Shown: piece by piece, positions 2,862 through 31,697 of the stretch
Layout: each line of letters starts with the position of its first letter
How positions within the stretch are numbered: the stretch's first letter is position 1
Assembly (NCBI GenBank): GCA_900317105.1
Contig: ONFP01000005.1
Span: 286-64,285 of the forward strand
Direction of reading: 5' to 3'
Length of the DNA stretch: 64,000 nt
Source of the DNA: an uncultured Succinatimonas sp.
Lineage (GTDB): Bacteria > Pseudomonadota > Gammaproteobacteria > Enterobacterales > Succinivibrionaceae
The notes under the pieces: generated by a model
What the model saw: the letters and a program-made list of their open reading frames with translations, nothing else
Told to the model about the DNA's origin: nothing
Databases searched by the model: none
Program-made: the position numbers and the translations under genes

Positions 2862-4145
2862 CTATGCTTCTTCAGGAAGCTTACCCTGCATTGTCTTGTT
2901 TACAATGTTTGCAACACATGAGTCAGACCATACATTCAGTGAGGTCTCAATCATATCAATTACAGCGTAAACCGGCAGAATGATTCCCATCAGAGTTACA
3001 GGAATGTTCATTGAAGAGACCAGTGACAGGGTTAGGAAATAGCATCCCATTGGTACACCTGCATTGCCAACTGCGGCAAAGGTAGCGATGAATACCCAGG
3101 CAAGCATGGTATCAAATCCAATTTCAATACCGGCATTCTGCATCAGATAAACAGAGGTTATCAGAATGAAGGCAGCACAGCCGTTCATATTAATGGTTGT
3201 GCAGATTGGCAGAACAAATCTTGAAACTCTTCTGTCTACATGCAGATTATCTTCAGCTGATGCCATGGTAACAGGCAGTGTACCTGCAGATGATTTGGAG
3301 AATAGCGCAACTGCAAGTGCAGGCAGCATTCCACGGGCAATCTTGATAGGATTAAGTCCTTTGATCAGAAGTATCAATGGCAGAATTACAAACATCTGAA
3401 TCAGGTTTGAGCTGATAACAACTCCAAAGTAGGTTGCAAGACCGCCTAAGATTATTCCTGCCTCAAGCTGAGTAACCAGCTGAGCAGTGAAAGCCATGAT
3501 GCCTAATGGCAGAATATTGATCAGCCAGTGGATCAGGATGAATAACAGTTCCTGAAATCCAGAGATTACAGAAATCAGAGCCTCCTTGTTTTTGCTCTCC
3601 TTCATTGTGGCAATTCCAAGACCAAAAGCCGCTGCAACCAGCAGAATTGAAAGTACATTACCGGCAACAAATGGCTGCAGAAGATTATTTGGAATAATGT
3701 TCTGGATGTGCTCTAGATATGACAGTGATTCATACTTGGTTACCACATCAGCAGCACTGGATGATAATGCTGCTGGTACGTTTGCAGGCTTTATAACCGC
3801 AAACAGCACAGCTCCTAAAAGGGCTGCCAGGATTGTAGTCAACAGTGTATAAAAGATGGTATGAGCAAATATGGAGCCACCTTTAGAATTCTTTGAAAGA
3901 TTTGCTAAAGTTGAGATCAGTGATACAGCAATAATTGGCACTGCAATAAAGCTGAACAGTCTTGTAAATACTGTTGCAATAAAGTCCATTACTGCATTTA
4001 TGTCTGTATTACCTGCAAAACCGATTAAGGATCCAACAATCAGTGCTCCTATGTATAAGGTTGCTGTGATTGCTCTGCCTTTTCCGCTAACTTTAGATAG
4101 GGCAGTAGCGGCTGCCGCATGAATTCTAGATGTTCTGAAAAGCAT
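2862..4145 (-). CDS. Dicarboxylate/amino acid:cation symporter (DAACS family)
   Basis: Multi-TM protein with KSSAGTLP, TTINMNG and DMIETSLNVWSD motifs. Lies 3 bp downstream of cysK. Confidence 0.9.
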   Translation of the reverse strand: MLFRTSRIHAAAATALSKVSGKGRAITATLYIGALIVGSLIGFAGNTDINAVMDFIATVFTRLFSFIAVPIIAVSLISTLANLSKNSKGGSIFAHTIFYTLLTTILAALLGAVLFAVIKPANVPAALSSSAADVVTKYESLSYLEHIQNIIPNNLLQPFVAGNVLSILLVAAAFGLGIATMKESKNKEALISVISGFQELLFILIHWLINILPLGIMAFTAQLVTQLEAGIILGGLATYFGVVISSNLIQMFVILPLILLIKGLNPIKIARGMLPALAVALFSKSSAGTLPVTMASAEDNLHVDRRVSRFVLPICTTINMNGCAAFILITSVYLMQNAGIEIGFDTMLAWVFIATFAAVGNAGVPMGCYFLTLSLVSSMNIPVTLMGIILPVYAVIDMIETSLNVWSDSCVANIVNKTMQGKLPEEA

Positions 4146-5401: not shown

Positions 5402-6322
5402 ATGCAAGATAACAACTGCTTTCCTTTGAACATGATTGAAAGGATCACGTCACATCCTGAAAATTATCGTTTACTGGAAAAAATTCCTCTGACTATAACA
5501 GGTGTAGATACTCATTTCCCTGTAGTTCTCAATGAGCCTCATCCAAATGAAAAGGTTTATTCTGTTGTCTTTTTAGATACAGAAACCACCGGTATGGATC
5601 CTGTTAAGAATAAAATCATTGAGCTGGGGATGGTTAAAGCTACTTTTTCCTTAGACAGAAAACTACTTTTGACTGTCGACAGATATTATGATGAGTTTGA
5701 GGACCCAAACGAGCCTATTCCTCCAGAAATCACAGAACTTACCCATATCACAGATGATATGGTTGCAGGCCATCACTTTGATGATGAAATGGTGGCTAGA
5801 TTTCTTACAGGAAGACCTCTTGTGGTTGCTCATAATGCTGCTTTTGACAGACCTTTCTTTGAAAAACGTTTCAAGTCTTTAACGACTCTGTCCTGGGCCT
5901 GTTCTCTTAAGGAGATCCCTTGGAAAAAACTTGGTTACTCAAGTGCCAAACTTGAATTTCTGAATATGGTTTTAGGGTATTTCTATGATGCACACAGAGC
6001 CTATGTGGATTGTCTTGCTCTTTTATGGATTATGTACAAGGTTCCTGCAGCATTCAGTGAGCTGGTAACTTCTGCCTTAAGCTGCAGCTATCGTGTGATC
6101 ATTAGAGGAAACACCTTCAAATTCAAGGATAACCTAAAGGAGAAAGGCTTCAGGTTTGATGGCGGTACGGCCAAGACCTGGTCCCGTTACTATCAGGATG
6201 AAGATGAGGCGTCCCGCGTAAAGCAGATTATCGAGGATACCTATAAAGACGGTTCAGTGGATTTTGATATCAGAATCGTCGAATATAAAGCCAAGACTCG
6301 ATACAAATTAGAAAATAACTGA
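5402..6322 (+). CDS. DEDDh 3'-5' exonuclease (DnaQ/epsilon-like)
   Basis: Intact ExoI DTETTG, ExoII HNAAFD and ExoIII HRAYVD. Confidence 0.9.
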   Translation: MQDNNCFPLNMIERITSHPENYRLLEKIPLTITGVDTHFPVVLNEPHPNEKVYSVVFLDTETTGMDPVKNKIIELGMVKATFSLDRKLLLTVDRYYDEFEDPNEPIPPEITELTHITDDMVAGHHFDDEMVARFLTGRPLVVAHNAAFDRPFFEKRFKSLTTLSWACSLKEIPWKKLGYSSAKLEFLNMVLGYFYDAHRAYVDCLALLWIMYKVPAAFSELVTSALSCSYRVIIRGNTFKFKDNLKEKGFRFDGGTAKTWSRYYQDEDEASRVKQIIEDTYKDGSVDFDIRIVEYKAKTRYKLENN

Positions 6323-27433: not shown

Positions 27434-28638
27434 TGAAGATTACAAGAAAGACCTTTGATGAGGTAATGTTCCCTTGCTACAACCCTATGAACATGGTTAT
27501 CAAGAAGGCTCATGGGGCATACATCTATGATAACAAGGGCAATAAATACACTGATCTTACCTCTGGAATTGCAGTTAATCTTCTTGGTCATACTCCTAAA
27601 GGTGTAGTCGATGTTATCAAAAAGGCCTCTGCCAACCTGATTCATGTAAGTAATATCTTCTGCAATGAATATACTCTGACCTTAGCTTCAAAACTTGTAA
27701 AGAAAACCGGTTATGAGAAGGTATTCTTTGTAAATTCTGGTGCAGAATCAAATGAGACTGCCCTAAAGCTGGCCCGTAGAGTTGCATTTGATCTCTATGG
27801 CGAGGATAAGAATGAGATTATCTCCTTTAACAACAGCTTTCATGGCAGAACTTTCTTCTCGGTAACAGTTGGTGGTCAGGAGAGTTATTCTGACGGTTTC
27901 GGTCCAAAGCCTGCAGCTATTACTCATATTCCCTACAATGATACCAAGACCTTTGAGAATACTATCTCTGATAAGACCTGTGCTGTGATCCTGGAGCCTA
28001 TTCAGGGAGAAGGCGGTATTATCACTGCAGATAATGATTTCTTAATTAAGGTTAGAGAGCTTTGTGACAAATATAATGCAGCGCTGATCTTCGATGAGGT
28101 TCAGACTGGTGTTGCAAGATGCGGAACTCTGTATGCCTATGAGCAGACTCCTGTAAAGCCTGATATTCTGACTTCAGCCAAGGGCCTGGCTTCAGGTCTT
28201 CCTATAGGTGCAGTTTTAACCTACGATAAGTTTGCTTCTCACTTTGTTCCAGGAACCCATGGTTCAACCTTTGGCGGTAATCCTCTGGCATGTGCCGTTG
28301 GTGCATATATTATCGACAAGGTAAGTGAAAAGTCATTCCTTAATAAGGTAAATAAGACTCATGATTATATTGTTGAGAAAGTCTCCAAACTTAATGAGAA
28401 GTATCATGTATTCAAGGAAGTAAGAGGTAAGGGCTTATTATTAGGTCTGGTACTAGATGATCAGTATGCAGGTAAATCATCAGAACTTCAGAAACTCTGC
28501 TTTAAACACAAGCTGTTAACACTTACTGCTCATGCCGATGTTCTTCGCCTCGCTCCTGCTCTGAATATCAGTCATAAGGTTGTAGATGAAGCTATTTCTT
28601 TACTGGATAAGGCTGTAAAGGACTTTGTTGCGGAATAA
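27433..28638 (+). CDS. argD: Acetylornithine aminotransferase
   Basis: NSGAESNE, FHGRT, DEVQTG, TSAKGL, HGSTFGGNPLA. Confidence 0.94.
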   Translation: MKITRKTFDEVMFPCYNPMNMVIKKAHGAYIYDNKGNKYTDLTSGIAVNLLGHTPKGVVDVIKKASANLIHVSNIFCNEYTLTLASKLVKKTGYEKVFFVNSGAESNETALKLARRVAFDLYGEDKNEIISFNNSFHGRTFFSVTVGGQESYSDGFGPKPAAITHIPYNDTKTFENTISDKTCAVILEPIQGEGGIITADNDFLIKVRELCDKYNAALIFDEVQTGVARCGTLYAYEQTPVKPDILTSAKGLASGLPIGAVLTYDKFASHFVPGTHGSTFGGNPLACAVGAYIIDKVSEKSFLNKVNKTHDYIVEKVSKLNEKYHVFKEVRGKGLLLGLVLDDQYAGKSSELQKLCFKHKLLTLTAHADVLRLAPALNISHKVVDEAISLLDKAVKDFVAE

Positions 28639-28675
28639 TTTTTAATTACCGTTTTTTGAATTTTGTTTTTTCGTT

Positions 28676-28710
28676 AATCACCAGTAATGTTTTTTATTGG
28701 TGATTTTTTT
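28676..28710 (+). terminator. arg operon terminator
   Basis: AATCACCAGTAA/TTATTGGTGATT followed by T5. Confidence 0.8.
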
Positions 28711-28735
28711 CACGATTATTTTTGAGACCTTAACT

Positions 28736-29140
28736 ATGTCTGTTTCCTACAAAGATACTCATGATTTTACCAGCCAGGAGCTTGAAGAGCTTTTTTTGTC
28801 TGTAGAATGGTCTTCCGGTCATTTTCCTGACAAACTGGTTGTAGCCATGAGGAATTTCTCCACTGTCTTTTCTGCCTGGGATGGCGATAGGCTCGTTGGA
28901 ATGGTTTGTGCCATGGATGATGGAATTATGAATGCGTATGTGCATTATCTCCTGGTTAATCCTGCGTATCAGCAGCAGAAAATAGGCAGGACTCTAGTAT
29001 CCATGATCAAGGAAAAGTATAAGGACTACCTTCGAATTGCAGTCATTGCTTACAATGATGAACTGCATTTCTACAGTGATTGCGGGTTTGTAAAATCAAA
29101 AGATGCTTCTCCAATGTTTATCACATCTCTTTGGACTTAA
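28736..29140 (+). CDS. GNAT-family acetyltransferase
   Basis: LVGMVCAMDDG..AYVHYLLVNPAYQQQKIG (acetyl-CoA-binding motif A), FY..CGF. Confidence 0.85.
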   Translation: MSVSYKDTHDFTSQELEELFLSVEWSSGHFPDKLVVAMRNFSTVFSAWDGDRLVGMVCAMDDGIMNAYVHYLLVNPAYQQQKIGRTLVSMIKEKYKDYLRIAVIAYNDELHFYSDCGFVKSKDASPMFITSLWT

Positions 29141-29173
29141 TAATTTTTGATCTGAAAACGTGTGTAGGTATTC

Positions 29174-29222
29174 TTCCTCCAAATCTTAAAAAAAAATGAG
29201 ATTTGGCGGAAAAATAATTCTA
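29174..29222. repeat. 49-bp palindromic direct repeat, copy A (includes the ATPase stop codon)
   Basis: TTCCTCCAAATCTTAAAAAAAAATGAGATTTGGCGGAAAAATAATTCTA, identical to 30693-30741. Confidence 0.95.
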
Positions 29223-30650
29223 AGAGATAAATAAGTCATCCAAAACAATCTGATTCTGAATCAGACTACTGTATTGGTTTTTCTTAAGCCCGAAGGTTGT
29301 AATTATTACAAGTTGTATTGTCCCTTTGTAATTAGTGTCTCTCCTAAATGCTTCAACCTTGTTGCGTAGTTTTAAATCATAATCTTTGTCTATTGAGTAT
29401 TCTCCGGTTGAGAATTTGATTTCACAGAGATTAGTTACGTGGTCTCTTCTTGATATAAGAAGATCGATCTGCGCTCCTTGTATCTCTGTATCACCTCTTA
29501 CATACCATGAAGATTCTTCTGAAAGAACCCCTGAAATACCTAGCTTCTTCTTGATTGAAGTGACGTGATCTCGGCAGATTTGTTCAAATACAAGTCCTTC
29601 CCATGTTCTTTTAGCAGGATTATCAACTGCATTACTCCAATAATGCTCGTCTTTACCGTAATTGTCTTTTATGAATTTAAAGTAGAATGAGGTATAGTAA
29701 TCACATAGCTGGTACAGGGCATTTTTTTTCTTTTTATTAAAGAAGTTAGATATTCTGATAAATCCAGAGAGTTCAAGATTTTTAAGAATGACTGATAGTT
29801 CTCCTCCAGTTTGTCGACCCGTTGATTTAAGTAGTTCCTCTCTTGTTAATCCACCTTTTTTCTTACTTAAAGATTCAACAACTTTTATATAGCTGGCACT
29901 GTTTGTAAATAGAGTTCTGTATAGATGCTCAAATTCATCACTTAATTCTCCTCTATCTGTGAAGAACAATGCATCGACATTCTGTGATAGGGATAATTTA
30001 CTGTTCAGAAGGCTCAGATAGTATGGGATTCCTCCCATAATCATGTAGCATTGAACTATATCGTATCGAGACCATTCTATATTTTTTGACTGAAGGTATT
30101 CTTCAACCTCATTTAAGGAAAATGGTTTTAGGAACAGTTTACAGGTCTGACGATTAAATAAACCACCCTTATTATTTGCTATTTTTTCATCCATCCATGA
30201 GGTTGCAGAGCCGCAGACAATAAATATAAGATTTCTTCTTGTTGAAGCCCAGTCATTCCAGAACCACTCAAATGCTGCAAGAAAACTGGATTTTTGAGTG
30301 TCCAACCACGGCATTTCGTCAAAGAAAATAACCTGCTTTTCATTTGTGTCTAGCGTTTCAAGATAATCTCTCAGACTATTAAAAGCTTCAAACCAGTCCT
30401 TTGAATTCAGTTTATTAACTCCATTCTGTCGAGACAGAGAGGTATCAAAAATTTTGAGTTGAACCTCTTTCGGCTGACCGTAGGATCCTGTTATCTTAAA
30501 GGCAAATCTGTTTTCAAAATATTCATTGATAAGATAGGTTTTACCAACACGTCTTCTTCCGTAGACAATAACTAACTGAGCCTGATCTGCATTCATGCAT
30601 TCGTCAAGCCTTTCACATTCTTTTTTTCTTCCAATTATTTTTCTGTTCAT
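29220..30650 (-). CDS. AAA+ ATPase with winged helix and C-terminal DUF234 / PD-(D/E)xK-like domain (COG1672-like)
   Basis: Walker A GRRRVGKT, Walker B IFFDEMPW, GGIPYYL, C-terminal QIDLLI..NLCEIKF. Confidence 0.88.
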   Translation of the reverse strand: MNRKIIGRKKECERLDECMNADQAQLVIVYGRRRVGKTYLINEYFENRFAFKITGSYGQPKEVQLKIFDTSLSRQNGVNKLNSKDWFEAFNSLRDYLETLDTNEKQVIFFDEMPWLDTQKSSFLAAFEWFWNDWASTRRNLIFIVCGSATSWMDEKIANNKGGLFNRQTCKLFLKPFSLNEVEEYLQSKNIEWSRYDIVQCYMIMGGIPYYLSLLNSKLSLSQNVDALFFTDRGELSDEFEHLYRTLFTNSASYIKVVESLSKKKGGLTREELLKSTGRQTGGELSVILKNLELSGFIRISNFFNKKKKNALYQLCDYYTSFYFKFIKDNYGKDEHYWSNAVDNPAKRTWEGLVFEQICRDHVTSIKKKLGISGVLSEESSWYVRGDTEIQGAQIDLLISRRDHVTNLCEIKFSTGEYSIDKDYDLKLRNKVEAFRRDTNYKGTIQLVIITTFGLKKNQYSSLIQNQIVLDDLFIS

Positions 30651-30657
30651 ATGATTA

Positions 30658-30686
30658 AGCATAGCTTTAATAGCTTATGATTTCAA
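30658..30686 (-). promoter_or_regulatory. Promoter of the ATPase gene, probably leaderless
   Basis: TTGAAA-17-TATGCT, 7 nt before the ATG at 30650. No SD sequence. Confidence 0.55.
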
Positions 30687-30692
30687 TTATTA

Positions 30693-30741
30693 TTCCTCCA
30701 AATCTTAAAAAAAAATGAGATTTGGCGGAAAAATAATTCTA
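30693..30741. repeat. 49-bp palindromic direct repeat, copy B
   Basis: Identical to 29174-29222; 6 bp upstream of the -35 box. Confidence 0.95.
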
Positions 30742-30926
30742 TGTGATTAAAGAAAGAATGCAATCAACGCTATTATCATCTGCTGTGAAAGGTGGAATCT
30801 TGCTTTTTCACACAAAAAAAGAGAGGAGTCTTGAGAATAGCGAATTGAAGAATCTGGTAGGCAGTCTTAAGTGAAGTGTTGCTTATTTTTGTACTGCAAC
30901 CAGATTTTTTTTTGAGAATTATGCGG

Positions 30927-31697
30927 TTAATTGTTATGTGGTGCAAAGAAATCGATTATTTTCTGAATCGCAAAATCCATACGTTTGGGATCTGAAAAAC
31001 GGTGATCTGCCTTTTCAACCTCTACAAGTTCAATAATATTCTTTTCTGAAAATTCTTTTGCATTCTCAATTGGCACGCTGTCATCAAGTGTTCCGTGAAT
31101 CATTAGAATGCTTTCTGCATAATCAATGTAGTCAAAGGCTGCAATTTCATCATCAATTATCTTTAGAGATTCAAGGAATTCATTGCTGATCTTCATCTTG
31201 CGATCACGTCCTGCCAATACTTCTTTTCCTTTTGAAAGCTTTTTATGATCATCTTCAGAAATGGTTGAAGACATGATGTCGTACAGTTTAACTGAAGTAC
31301 TTCTCAGCGCTATTCTTTCAAAAGGATTGCCATGATCTTCTATGTACTTTAGGGTATTAAAACCACCAAAGCTTACTGAATAATTGTATAGAGCCTGTGC
31401 CTTTAAATGTTCTCGTGCGTAGTCAATAACCAGCTGCAGGTAGGTCTGACATTCACTTATAAGGAGTTTTTTTCTTGCATCCTGACCGTGACATGGCCAG
31501 TCAAAGGTAATTACACCAAATCCTTTATATTTTGTATCAATTCTTTCTGCGAATTTTTCGACGGATTTATTGTCCTTAAAGCCACCAAATCCGTGAGTTG
31601 CAATTACTACTTTATCAATTGAATGTATATCTTTGTCGTAGAATAATTTGCAGCGAACGCTGTAGCCCTTTTCGTTTATATCAAATAGCTTTTCCAT
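30927..31697 (-). CDS. Alpha/beta hydrolase
   Basis: THGFGG, FDWPCHG, nucleophile elbow SVSFGG, IHGTLDD, DH. ATG at 31697 follows AAGGA. Confidence 0.85.
   Translation of the reverse strand: MEKLFDINEKGYSVRCKLFYDKDIHSIDKVVIATHGFGGFKDNKSVEKFAERIDTKYKGFGVITFDWPCHGQDARKKLLISECQTYLQLVIDYAREHLKAQALYNYSVSFGGFNTLKYIEDHGNPFERIALRSTSVKLYDIMSSTISEDDHKKLSKGKEVLAGRDRKMKISNEFLESLKIIDDEIAAFDYIDYAESILMIHGTLDDSVPIENAKEFSEKNIIELVEVEKADHRFSDPKRMDFAIQKIIDFFAPHNN

Follow-up and report, generated by a model that had tools for sequence, protein, structure and literature searches.

PDC-S27 is a candidate defence family of the PADLOC catalogue (PF01637 + PF03008; COG1672) and belongs to the ten most frequent predicted defence systems in surveys of prokaryotes, with about 8000 catalogued loci. 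Genes of this type abound in rumen genomes and in archaea, and their horizontal spread between rumen bacteria has been noted (PMC12988326, PMC13356809, PMC3424549; for the transfer, PMC3424549). The PDCs are listed among '145 untested candidates' (bioRxiv 10.1101/2024.01.29.577857), and the anti-phage role of the family is a guess of the catalogue, that is, a candidate function. The catalogue and the surveys treat the protein only, without palindromic sites, a leaderless promoter, sharp module ends or presence/absence polymorphism; in the searchable literature on PDC-S27, DUF234 and COG1672, no description of palindromes, module ends or polymorphism was found. In this study, a PDC-S27 gene located between two identical 49-nucleotide (nt) palindromic repeats was analysed in a stretch of 64,000 nt from an uncultured Succinatimonas sp. 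(assembly GCA_900317105.1, contig ONFP01000005.1), hereafter called the window. The encoded protein is a full-length member of the family, a single-gene fusion of ATPase and nuclease. The original prediction, made from the letters of the window, had ranked the locus as its best candidate for an undescribed system; the gene family, at least, is a catalogued one.

A second described system resembles the locus in its anatomy. Restriction-modification genes can be inserted with long target duplication, whereby direct repeats, 46-47 bp long in several cases, flank the insert, the empty locus holds a single copy, the repeat occurs nowhere else in the genome and mobility genes are absent (PMC2853133). 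Such insertion of restriction-modification genes is also attributed to Nobusato et al. 2000, as cited in PMC2853133. We propose that positions 29174-30741 of the window probably constitute a compact, horizontally spreading PDC-S27 module, in which the palindromes would be cognate sites and their direct repetition would permit gain and loss. The PDC-S27 gene is accordingly presented here not as a loose open reading frame (ORF) but as a defined 1.5-kb module with a predicted cognate palindrome, precisely gained and lost.

Filled, empty and second-site alleles of the module

The repeat TTCCTCCAAATCTTAAAAAAAAATGAGATTTGGCGGAAAAATAATTCTA is present in two exact copies, 1519 nt apart from start to start (Table 1), and an exact 49-nt copy pair is not expected by chance (100 shuffles). 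The similarity of the copies extends to 63 nt at 94% identity, and a search of the whole 2.79-Mb assembly with the 49-mer returned only the two cassette sites. Each copy contains an imperfect palindrome, TTCC-T-CCAAATCT / AGATTTGG-C-GGAA around T-A9-TG, with the core CCAAAT-N16-ATTTGG lying within longer arms; the arms measure at least 13 nt, the centre 12 nt, and the cores stand 16 nt apart. For both strands of the palindrome, a folding energy of -19 to -21 kcal/mol is predicted (z scores of about -4.4 to -5.7), and the resulting hairpin would have a loop of 8-12 nt and the tails GAAUAC and AAAAAU. Copy 1 lies on the 3' side of the gene and, read along the gene strand, starts with TAG (29222-29220), the stop codon, so that the last three bases of this copy terminate the single minus-strand ORF (29220-30662) between the copies. 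Copy 2 ends 6 nt ahead of the -35 box on the minus strand. In these respects the original prediction was accurate: it had described the two 49-bp copies and their spacing, the inverted repeat with its A9 centre, the copy ending on TAG, the second copy 6 bp from a leaderless TTGAAA-17-TATGCT promoter (30686-30658) and the lack of an integrase.

The prediction had further read the locus as a cassette and proposed a search of the genome and its relatives with the 49-mer; this comparison yielded one-copy empty alleles and supported the main points of that reading. By flank identity the relatives are ordered as ((window, G041 98%), G011 90-92%, L143 85-87%), G020 82%. In the single-contig genome G041 (flanks 98%), the cassette and both palindromes occupy the same locus as in the window. 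In Succinivibrio dextrinosolvens ACV-10 (G011; flanks 90-92%) and in the metagenome contig L143 (flanks 85-87%), the left flank is followed by one palindrome and the right flank, without the gene, and the junctions are those predicted for an exchange inside the 49-mer. Neither gene nor palindrome is present in G020 (flanks 82%), in which a different hairpin lies in a short spacer. Comparison of the alleles shows that promoter and gene are either both there or both missing, as a precise unit of 1519 bp, with exactly one palindrome left. Both filled and one-palindrome alleles occur among S. dextrinosolvens isolates, a filled one being that of the isolate assembly with FOSF01000035.

A unit 78% identical to that of the window, with both palindromes, is located in Succinivibrio sp. 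RGIG9224 (G018) between the genes of an Fe-alcohol dehydrogenase (Fe-ADH) and a class-3 fructose-bisphosphatase (FBPase). The homology between the two units ends at the outer edges of the repeats, and no homology was detected when their outer flanks were compared. The Fe-ADH and class-3 FBPase genes are adjacent in the window genome (G000), G003 and G020, where the spacer is short and palindrome-free. It is shown by this comparison that the whole palindrome-to-palindrome unit has been placed at another, unrelated locus in another species. The palindrome was found in only four of 44 Succinivibrio genomes (the window genome, G041, G011 and G018); because of this genus-wide restriction and the second locus in G018, gene and palindrome are taken to travel together, and the number of chromosomal sites that the unit has occupied is at least two. 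Two independent Succinivibrio loci thereby carry a duplication of the same 49-53 nt. The repeat copies are alike within each genome and unlike between genomes, and one loop base differs between the upstream and the downstream copy, identically in G018 and G041.

The copy pair is also present in the complete genome G041, an NCBI isolate assembly and 8 independent metagenome contigs. Since all of these show the identical structure, an assembly artefact, a doubt raised by the original prediction itself, was ruled out. The exact window protein is encoded by a Logan contig of 1549 nt (L188, SRR32943883_170722; L189, SRR12711467_166034) that begins and ends with the same 30 nt, which corresponds to a closed 1519-nt cycle at k = 31 in 2 samples. 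The usual Logan product is a linear unitig of 1530 nt (11 samples), as expected if chromosomal flanks branch off. The closed cycle is a hint of free circles or tandem copies, and graph or tip clipping at low coverage may equally give rise to it.

Two observations concern the sites themselves. The resident hairpin of G020 (L013 1440-1470; TTCCTCCAGCGCCCAAATCGTGGCTGGAGGAG, window plus strand) has TTCCTCCA and CCAAATC in common with the cassette palindrome, a resemblance that may reflect chance, microhomology used at insertion or a decayed site. The Fe-ADH/FBPase spacer of G018 (L004 3071-3871) contains about 800 nt of extra DNA beyond the cassette, with an ORF of 131-139 amino acids (aa) that has no Pfam match and is absent from the other Succinivibrio genomes; because of this extra DNA, the G018 site has taken up more than the cassette.

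The protein and its predicted site across phyla

The first ATG of the gene sits inside the -10 box and the second 7 nt beyond it, the PADLOC profile alignment begins at the methionine of the second ATG, and the G018 orthologue (TTGACA-18-TATGCT-7-ATG) matches the layout of the window. On these three grounds the product is likely the 476-aa protein translated from the second ATG of a leaderless mRNA. The original reading of the gene as ATPase, winged helix and PD-(D/E)xK nuclease was upheld, and the true start of the gene is probably the second ATG, at 30650, and not 30662.

The protein matches PADLOC profile PDLC04984 (PDC-S27) at E 3.1e-201, with residues 5-478 on profile positions 1-473 of 474. 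In Pfam, ATPase_2 (PF01637) was matched at E 5.8e-17, HTH_34 weakly, and DUF234 weakly and below the cut-off (E 0.0075); a search of NCBIfam with the protein gave no family, and a sequence search against solved structures gave no match. The domain order is an Orc1/Cdc6-like AAA+ ATPase (ATPase_2), a winged helix and a DUF234 PD-(D/E)xK nuclease. [quoted passage not shown] With this model, the fold search placed the Pyrococcus ATPase_2 protein 2QEN as the best match in the PDB, followed by ORC/Cdc6 proteins and STAND NTPases; the ORC/Cdc6 matches include 2QBY, a complex of Orc1/Cdc6 with origin DNA. In the 476-aa numbering, the Walker A motif comprises G31-K37-T38, Walker B D111-E112 and the nuclease site E356/D396/E410-x-K412, and all of these are invariant in the 65 homologues. 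The model places the recognition helix of the winged helix at residues 282-294. The window genome also encodes a distant ATPase_2-type paralogue (contig C73:39108-40361) with 23% identity to the window protein.

Homologues with 43-82% identity were collected from 80 genomes (Treponema, Lachnospiraceae, Erysipelotrichaceae, Bacteroidales, Ruminobacter and others), a patchy, cross-phylum distribution that is typical of horizontal transfer. To locate the module ends, nucleotide homology was compared in 22 pairs of modules in different contexts. The 5' limit of homology fell 70-100 nt before the ATG in 15 of the 22 pairs, and 15 of the 22 had their 3' limit between -20 and +6 nt relative to the stop codon (14 according to the printed bins and one further pair, at -34/-7, by the position in its second sequence). 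In five pairs with a downstream palindrome the 3' limit lay +18 to +50 nt past the stop. Given these limits, the module consists of a palindrome, a promoter, the ORF, an optional second palindrome and almost nothing else. In the pairs inspected, the palindrome adjoins the -35 box and 6-7 nt separate the -10 box from the ATG, which is the leaderless layout.

Palindromes of at least 12 bp occur upstream of 38 of 74 family genes, compared with 12 of 331 control ORFs from the same loci. The inverted motif of the family is CyAAAT-N16/17-ATTTrG, found upstream in 46 of 77 loci and just after the stop codon in 13 of 77. Among 56 upstream matches the core spacing is 17 nt in 45 and 16 nt in 5, against a flat distribution in control DNA (436 kb), and the upstream site ends 40-49 nt before the ATG in 30 cases. 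Related half-sites in the family include TTCCGCCAAATCT, TTCCTCTAAAT, GGTCTAAAT, GTCGAAAT and others. A fixed spacing combined with variable stem length and loop is a property of a protein-binding site and not of a hairpin in RNA. Several family members have a second palindrome whose arms stand on either side of the -10 box, or a half-site that is part of the promoter, the classic geometry of autorepression. With the operators of autoregulated genes the site shares a fixed inverted-repeat geometry and a promoter position that are conserved with the gene. The repeat of the window is confined to this gene, and palindromes related to it are found with homologues across phyla, which sets it apart from the dispersed generic terminator or REP (repetitive extragenic palindrome) that the original prediction had considered as a counter-explanation.

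Of 78 aligned proteins, 65 have Asn as the first residue of the recognition helix, and half-sites of the CTAAA type predominate among these 65. Gly or Ser occupies this position in 12 proteins, all with C before the A-run (CCAAA; in one case CCATAA), and these proteins represent three clades: a basal Bacteroidetes-type clade, the Succinivibrionaceae including the window, and the single Lachnospiraceae protein L093. The thirteenth non-Asn protein, L098 with Thr, has a different half-site, TTGAAAAGTC. For L058 and L093, the half-sites were predicted from the protein beforehand and then confirmed in the DNA. Bacteroidales proteins that are 43% identical to that of the window share its GG motif and an identical half-site, TTCCGCCAAATCT; in the Bacteroidales genome G060, this half-site is present solely at its own ATPase gene. 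The fixed half-site spacing and the covariation with the recognition helix give indirect yet specific backing to the view that the protein may be the reader of its own palindrome.

Further arrangements of the palindrome were observed in the family. Upstream of Bacteroidales homologues (42-44% identity; L141, L142, L149, L136/L144), two full palindromes with the half-site of the Succinivibrio cassette stand in tandem with a period of about 52 nt, and a third half-site lies beside a TAnnTTTG-type promoter box, the whole forming a putative operator array. On Bacteroidales-like rumen contigs (L150 reverse complement, about 401-445 and 1017-1060; L138, L147), solo palindromes with this same half-site (TTTTCCGCCAAATCT...AGATTTGGCGGA) follow unrelated genes and share about 40 nt of flank; two of them bracket an ORF of 178 aa with a signal peptide, so that a gene other than the ATPase lies between palindrome-bearing repeats. 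In the Lachnospiraceae, L118 provides a second independent pair of occupied and empty alleles with a solo palindrome in the empty one. Its repeat of about 75 nt takes in a neighbouring hairpin, and the empty allele resembles a hybrid whose left part matches the upstream copy and whose right part matches the downstream one. The 33-nt palindrome of L118, loop included, also stands solo at other loci (L177, G063 C137; L178/L179, G078 C30 and C48; L176, G078 C163), and one genome with such solo palindromes has no closely related ATPase gene at the DNA level.

Non-palindromic repeats of 95-250 nt flank other members. At L080, the repeat (3601-3728 / 5584-5711, 102-128 nt) is made up of the 5' end of an 810-aa host gene located downstream, and by its sequence it is a long target duplication; the repeats measure about 250 nt at L078 (3698-3947 / 5554-5802) and 95-155 nt at L133/L091 (about 3736-3890 / 5471-5641). 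No empty site for the Dysgonamonadaceae module L129 was found among 40 relatives. In plasmid and phage records, homologues of at most 47% identity occur on large plasmids and in a few records labelled as phage, with no close relative among them. The 4.4-kb 'phage' record MT839760 was considered as a vehicle and rejected as a non-circular fragment of a Bacteroidetes chromosome. A Wolbachia phage WO record (MN180249.1 11274-12743) encodes a full-length homologue with 40% identity, on the strength of which some family members ride on phages.

Housekeeping genes surround the module in the window: to its left, genes resembling argC, argB and argD together with two GNAT genes, and to its right, those for an alpha/beta hydrolase and an M20 peptidase. 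No tyrosine recombinase (PF00589) was matched on the cassette contig (C80), and 15 matches were obtained elsewhere in the genome. The spacer between the hydrolase gene and the cassette (Table 1) is kept in the palindrome-bearing G041 and G011 and partly in L143, and it is absent from the palindrome-free G020. A tblastn search of this spacer and of the G018 flanks for a remnant of the ATPase gene gave nothing below E 0.02. The spacer holds a hairpin TGTGAAA...TTTCACA which, like the cassette palindrome, is 'backwards' as a terminator on either strand, since a T-run precedes its stem and an A-run trails it.

Table 1. Positions of the module features in the window
Feature	Position	Strand	Remarks
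3'-side repeat copy (copy 1)	29174..29222	none	palindrome proper 29174-29211; extended repeat 29169-29231
PDC-S27 gene	29220..30650	-	476 aa from second ATG (30650); 480 aa if read from 30662
Sigma-70-type promoter TTGAAA-17-TATGCT	30658..30686	-	-10 box ends 7 nt before ATG 30650
5'-side repeat copy (copy 2)	30693..30741	none	palindrome proper 30693-30730; extended repeat 30688-30750
Spacer, hydrolase stop codon to cassette	30742..30926	none	185 nt

Proposed mechanism and rival explanations

The proposed history of the locus is as follows. The module would have been inserted between the arginine-biosynthesis/GNAT genes and the hydrolase gene of a rumen Succinivibrio chromosome, and the palindrome CCAAAT-N16-ATTTGG is the predicted binding site of the encoded winged helix. 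The upstream palindrome may serve autoregulation or insulation of the leaderless promoter. Loss could proceed by recombination between the 49-nt repeats, whether RecA-type, by replication slippage or promoted by the protein, and would release a 1519-bp circle carrying promoter and gene; the remaining solo palindrome could act as a landing pad for re-entry. Several points weigh against this account. Excision and the circle are deduced from the comparison of alleles, with the closed assembly cycle as only a hint, and the binding of the palindrome by the protein is likewise deduced. Parsimony over the four lineages counts two events for a gain plus an insertion and three for a gain plus two losses, so that the solo palindromes may be deletion scars or earlier landing sites. 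Integration of palindrome by palindrome requires a resident palindrome at both Succinivibrio loci, and solo palindromes are otherwise absent from these genomes. The loop-base difference common to G018 and G041 fits transfer of a unit with both copies, not re-creation at each site. The host-sequence repeats, as in L080 and in the adjacent hairpin of L118, imply that the mechanism of duplication may not be specific to palindromes. The covariation of helix and half-site comprises about three independent changes, and the L064/L067 clade, with N and CCAAA, is an exception to it.

The sharp and reproducible ends of the module across phyla, with no recombinase gene travelling along, raise the question of whether the protein moves its own gene. 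In such an autonomous single-gene mobile element, the protein would bind the palindromic ends, cut at the outer edges and move or copy the 1.5-kb unit; we regard this as unlikely. In one variant, a staggered cut flanking a single palindrome followed by fill-in would produce a linear unit with identical palindromes at both ends, and a direct repeat of a palindrome is an inverted repeat as well. Seen more broadly, it is a doubtful prospect that PDC-S27 modules form an unrecognised class of autonomous elements whose ATPase-nuclease would recognise its own palindrome (inverted boxes, A/T spacer), cut its edges and excise, insert or briefly replicate a 1.5-kb circle, with solo palindromes as footprints or landing pads. 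If this were true, one of the most abundant candidate defence genes of bacteria and archaea would, at least partly, be a selfish mobile element that works by a new type of mechanism. Homology between G018 and the window genome runs exactly from outer edge to outer edge at sites otherwise palindrome-free, which suits such a mover, as do the identity of the copies within and not between genomes, the loop difference common to G018 and G041, the invariant nuclease and ATPase residues, the identical solo palindromes at extra loci on Lachnospiraceae and Bacteroidales contigs and the closed 1519-nt assembly cycle. It fits poorly that each genome here has a single module instead of many near-identical copies, that no target-site duplication is visible outside the repeats, that most family members have the upstream palindrome alone, and that the host-sequence repeats flanking other members do not match end-specific cutting. 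To our knowledge, no PD-(D/E)xK/AAA+ protein of this architecture transposes DNA. Movement in trans is the other possibility of this kind, a passive cassette being shifted by a host site-specific recombinase in the manner of attC x attC or Xer/pdif. The anatomy is indeed that of a cassette between two recombination sites with a one-site empty allele, the arms around a central spacer superficially resemble a recombinase core site, and the genome has its 15 tyrosine-recombinase matches. The repeat nevertheless contains no GTT or AAC and so lacks the attC R boxes (RYYYAAC / GTTRRRY); the cassette brings a promoter of its own, the contig has no integrase, and neither the sequence nor the 16-17-nt spacing suits the 11-6-11 layout of dif. 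The site also co-varies with the cassette protein across phyla that differ in their host recombinases, which suggests that the site is read by the cassette protein and not by an enzyme of the host. We therefore hold host-driven movement to be very unlikely.

A serious partial rival of the horizontally spreading module is palindrome-independent long target duplication or Campbell-type integration, in which a circle or fragment would integrate by homology at a resident copy and the repeats would be by-products. The anatomy equals that of the restriction-modification cases of Furuta et al. 2010 (PMC2853133), long host-sequence repeats surround L080 (102-128 nt), L078 (about 250 nt) and L133/L091 (95-155 nt), and the L118 repeat includes a neighbouring hairpin and has a hybrid-like empty allele. 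In the window, the duplicated sequence is not arbitrary target DNA but the cis element of the family itself, and the same 49-53 nt are duplicated at two independent Succinivibrio loci; the first arrival of a palindrome at a palindrome-free, G020-type site is also left unexplained. An identity of 49 nt is sufficient for RecA-type exchange, which speaks for integration by homology. As a full explanation, it is considered quite improbable. That the hairpins are duplicated terminators or insulators only, with no role in movement and no binding of the protein, is the least credible alternative, and we give it hardly any weight. The hairpin is stable on both strands, two convergent genes flank copy 1, and copy 2 is situated downstream of the gene for the hydrolase. 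Some downstream palindromes of the family precede T-runs, and the Bacteroidales solo copies follow stop codons and have a U-rich tail. In the window, however, no T-tract follows the stem on either strand and the palindrome was not called in the terminator scan, so that the terminator suggested by the original prediction is not a canonical one; an Rfam scan of 28600-31100 gave no match at E <= 1. The AAAT/ATTT cores keep a spacing of 16-17 nt while stem and loop vary, the palindrome abuts or straddles promoter elements, and the precise presence/absence unit and its second locus would remain unexplained by termination.

Implications and comparison with known systems

The module offers practical handles. 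Its promoter and leaderless start require no host-specific signals, the predicted DNA ligand CyAAAT-N16/17-ATTTrG and a predicted specificity residue (the first of the recognition helix) are at hand, and the 1519-bp excision between the 49-nt repeats is a testable rearrangement in the culturable S. dextrinosolvens. The family is also linked by the locus to the 'insertion with long target duplication' of restriction-modification genes, which is long-standing and mechanistically unexplained. The cassette shares with those genes direct repeats of more than 30 bp, a one-copy empty allele, a genome-unique repeat and the lack of a mobility gene. It differs in that its repeat is a palindrome that travels with the gene family and probably binds the gene product, and in that this repeat flanks the unit at two unrelated loci. 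As to a resident target, solo palindromes are present in two outgroup lineages, and the palindrome is at the same time the family's own element, found at a second locus and absent from the 82% relative.

Recombination cassettes provide a second set of comparisons, and here the likeness of the site to attC or pdif that the original prediction had suggested did not hold, as the motifs of both are absent. Integron cassettes (integrase-less attC clusters included), which often carry defence genes, are likewise compact one-gene units with imperfect palindromes as borders, and a circular intermediate with one site is plausible for both. In contrast to attC, the 63-nt repeat has neither GTT nor AAC on either strand, and R boxes of the form RYYYAAC ... 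GTTRRRY are absent. There is no integron integrase and no attI, the cassette carries its own promoter, which integron cassettes usually lack, and its site, positioned at the module's 5' end, co-varies with the cassette protein. The pdif/Xer modules are also small, recombinase-less gene modules bounded by short palindromic sites. A dif-like site is 28 bp long, with two 11-bp arms around a 6-bp spacer, whereas the cassette copies are direct repeats of one palindrome without the 11-6-11 architecture or sequence of dif, and they are not the chromosomal dif.

Two further systems resemble the module through its protein and palindrome. In REP/RAYT (REP-associated tyrosine transposase) systems, a single-copy gene is flanked by cognate palindromes, and the solo palindromes after genes on Bacteroidales and Lachnospiraceae contigs add to the likeness; the cassette protein is AAA+/PD-(D/E)xK and not an HUH/Y1 transposase, and its palindrome has two copies and is not dispersed. 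Archaeal Orc1/Cdc6 proteins (PDB 2QBY) share the AAA+ plus winged-helix fold and inverted sites around an A/T-rich spacer beside their own gene. The cassette protein adds a PD-(D/E)xK nuclease domain, and the spacer of its site, at 16-17 nt, falls far short of the length that an unwinding element typically has, with no evidence of replication. Taken with these systems, the locus is best described as a defence-type gene cassette with flanking direct repeats, distinguished by a putative protein-cognate palindrome that appears to set the ends of the module.

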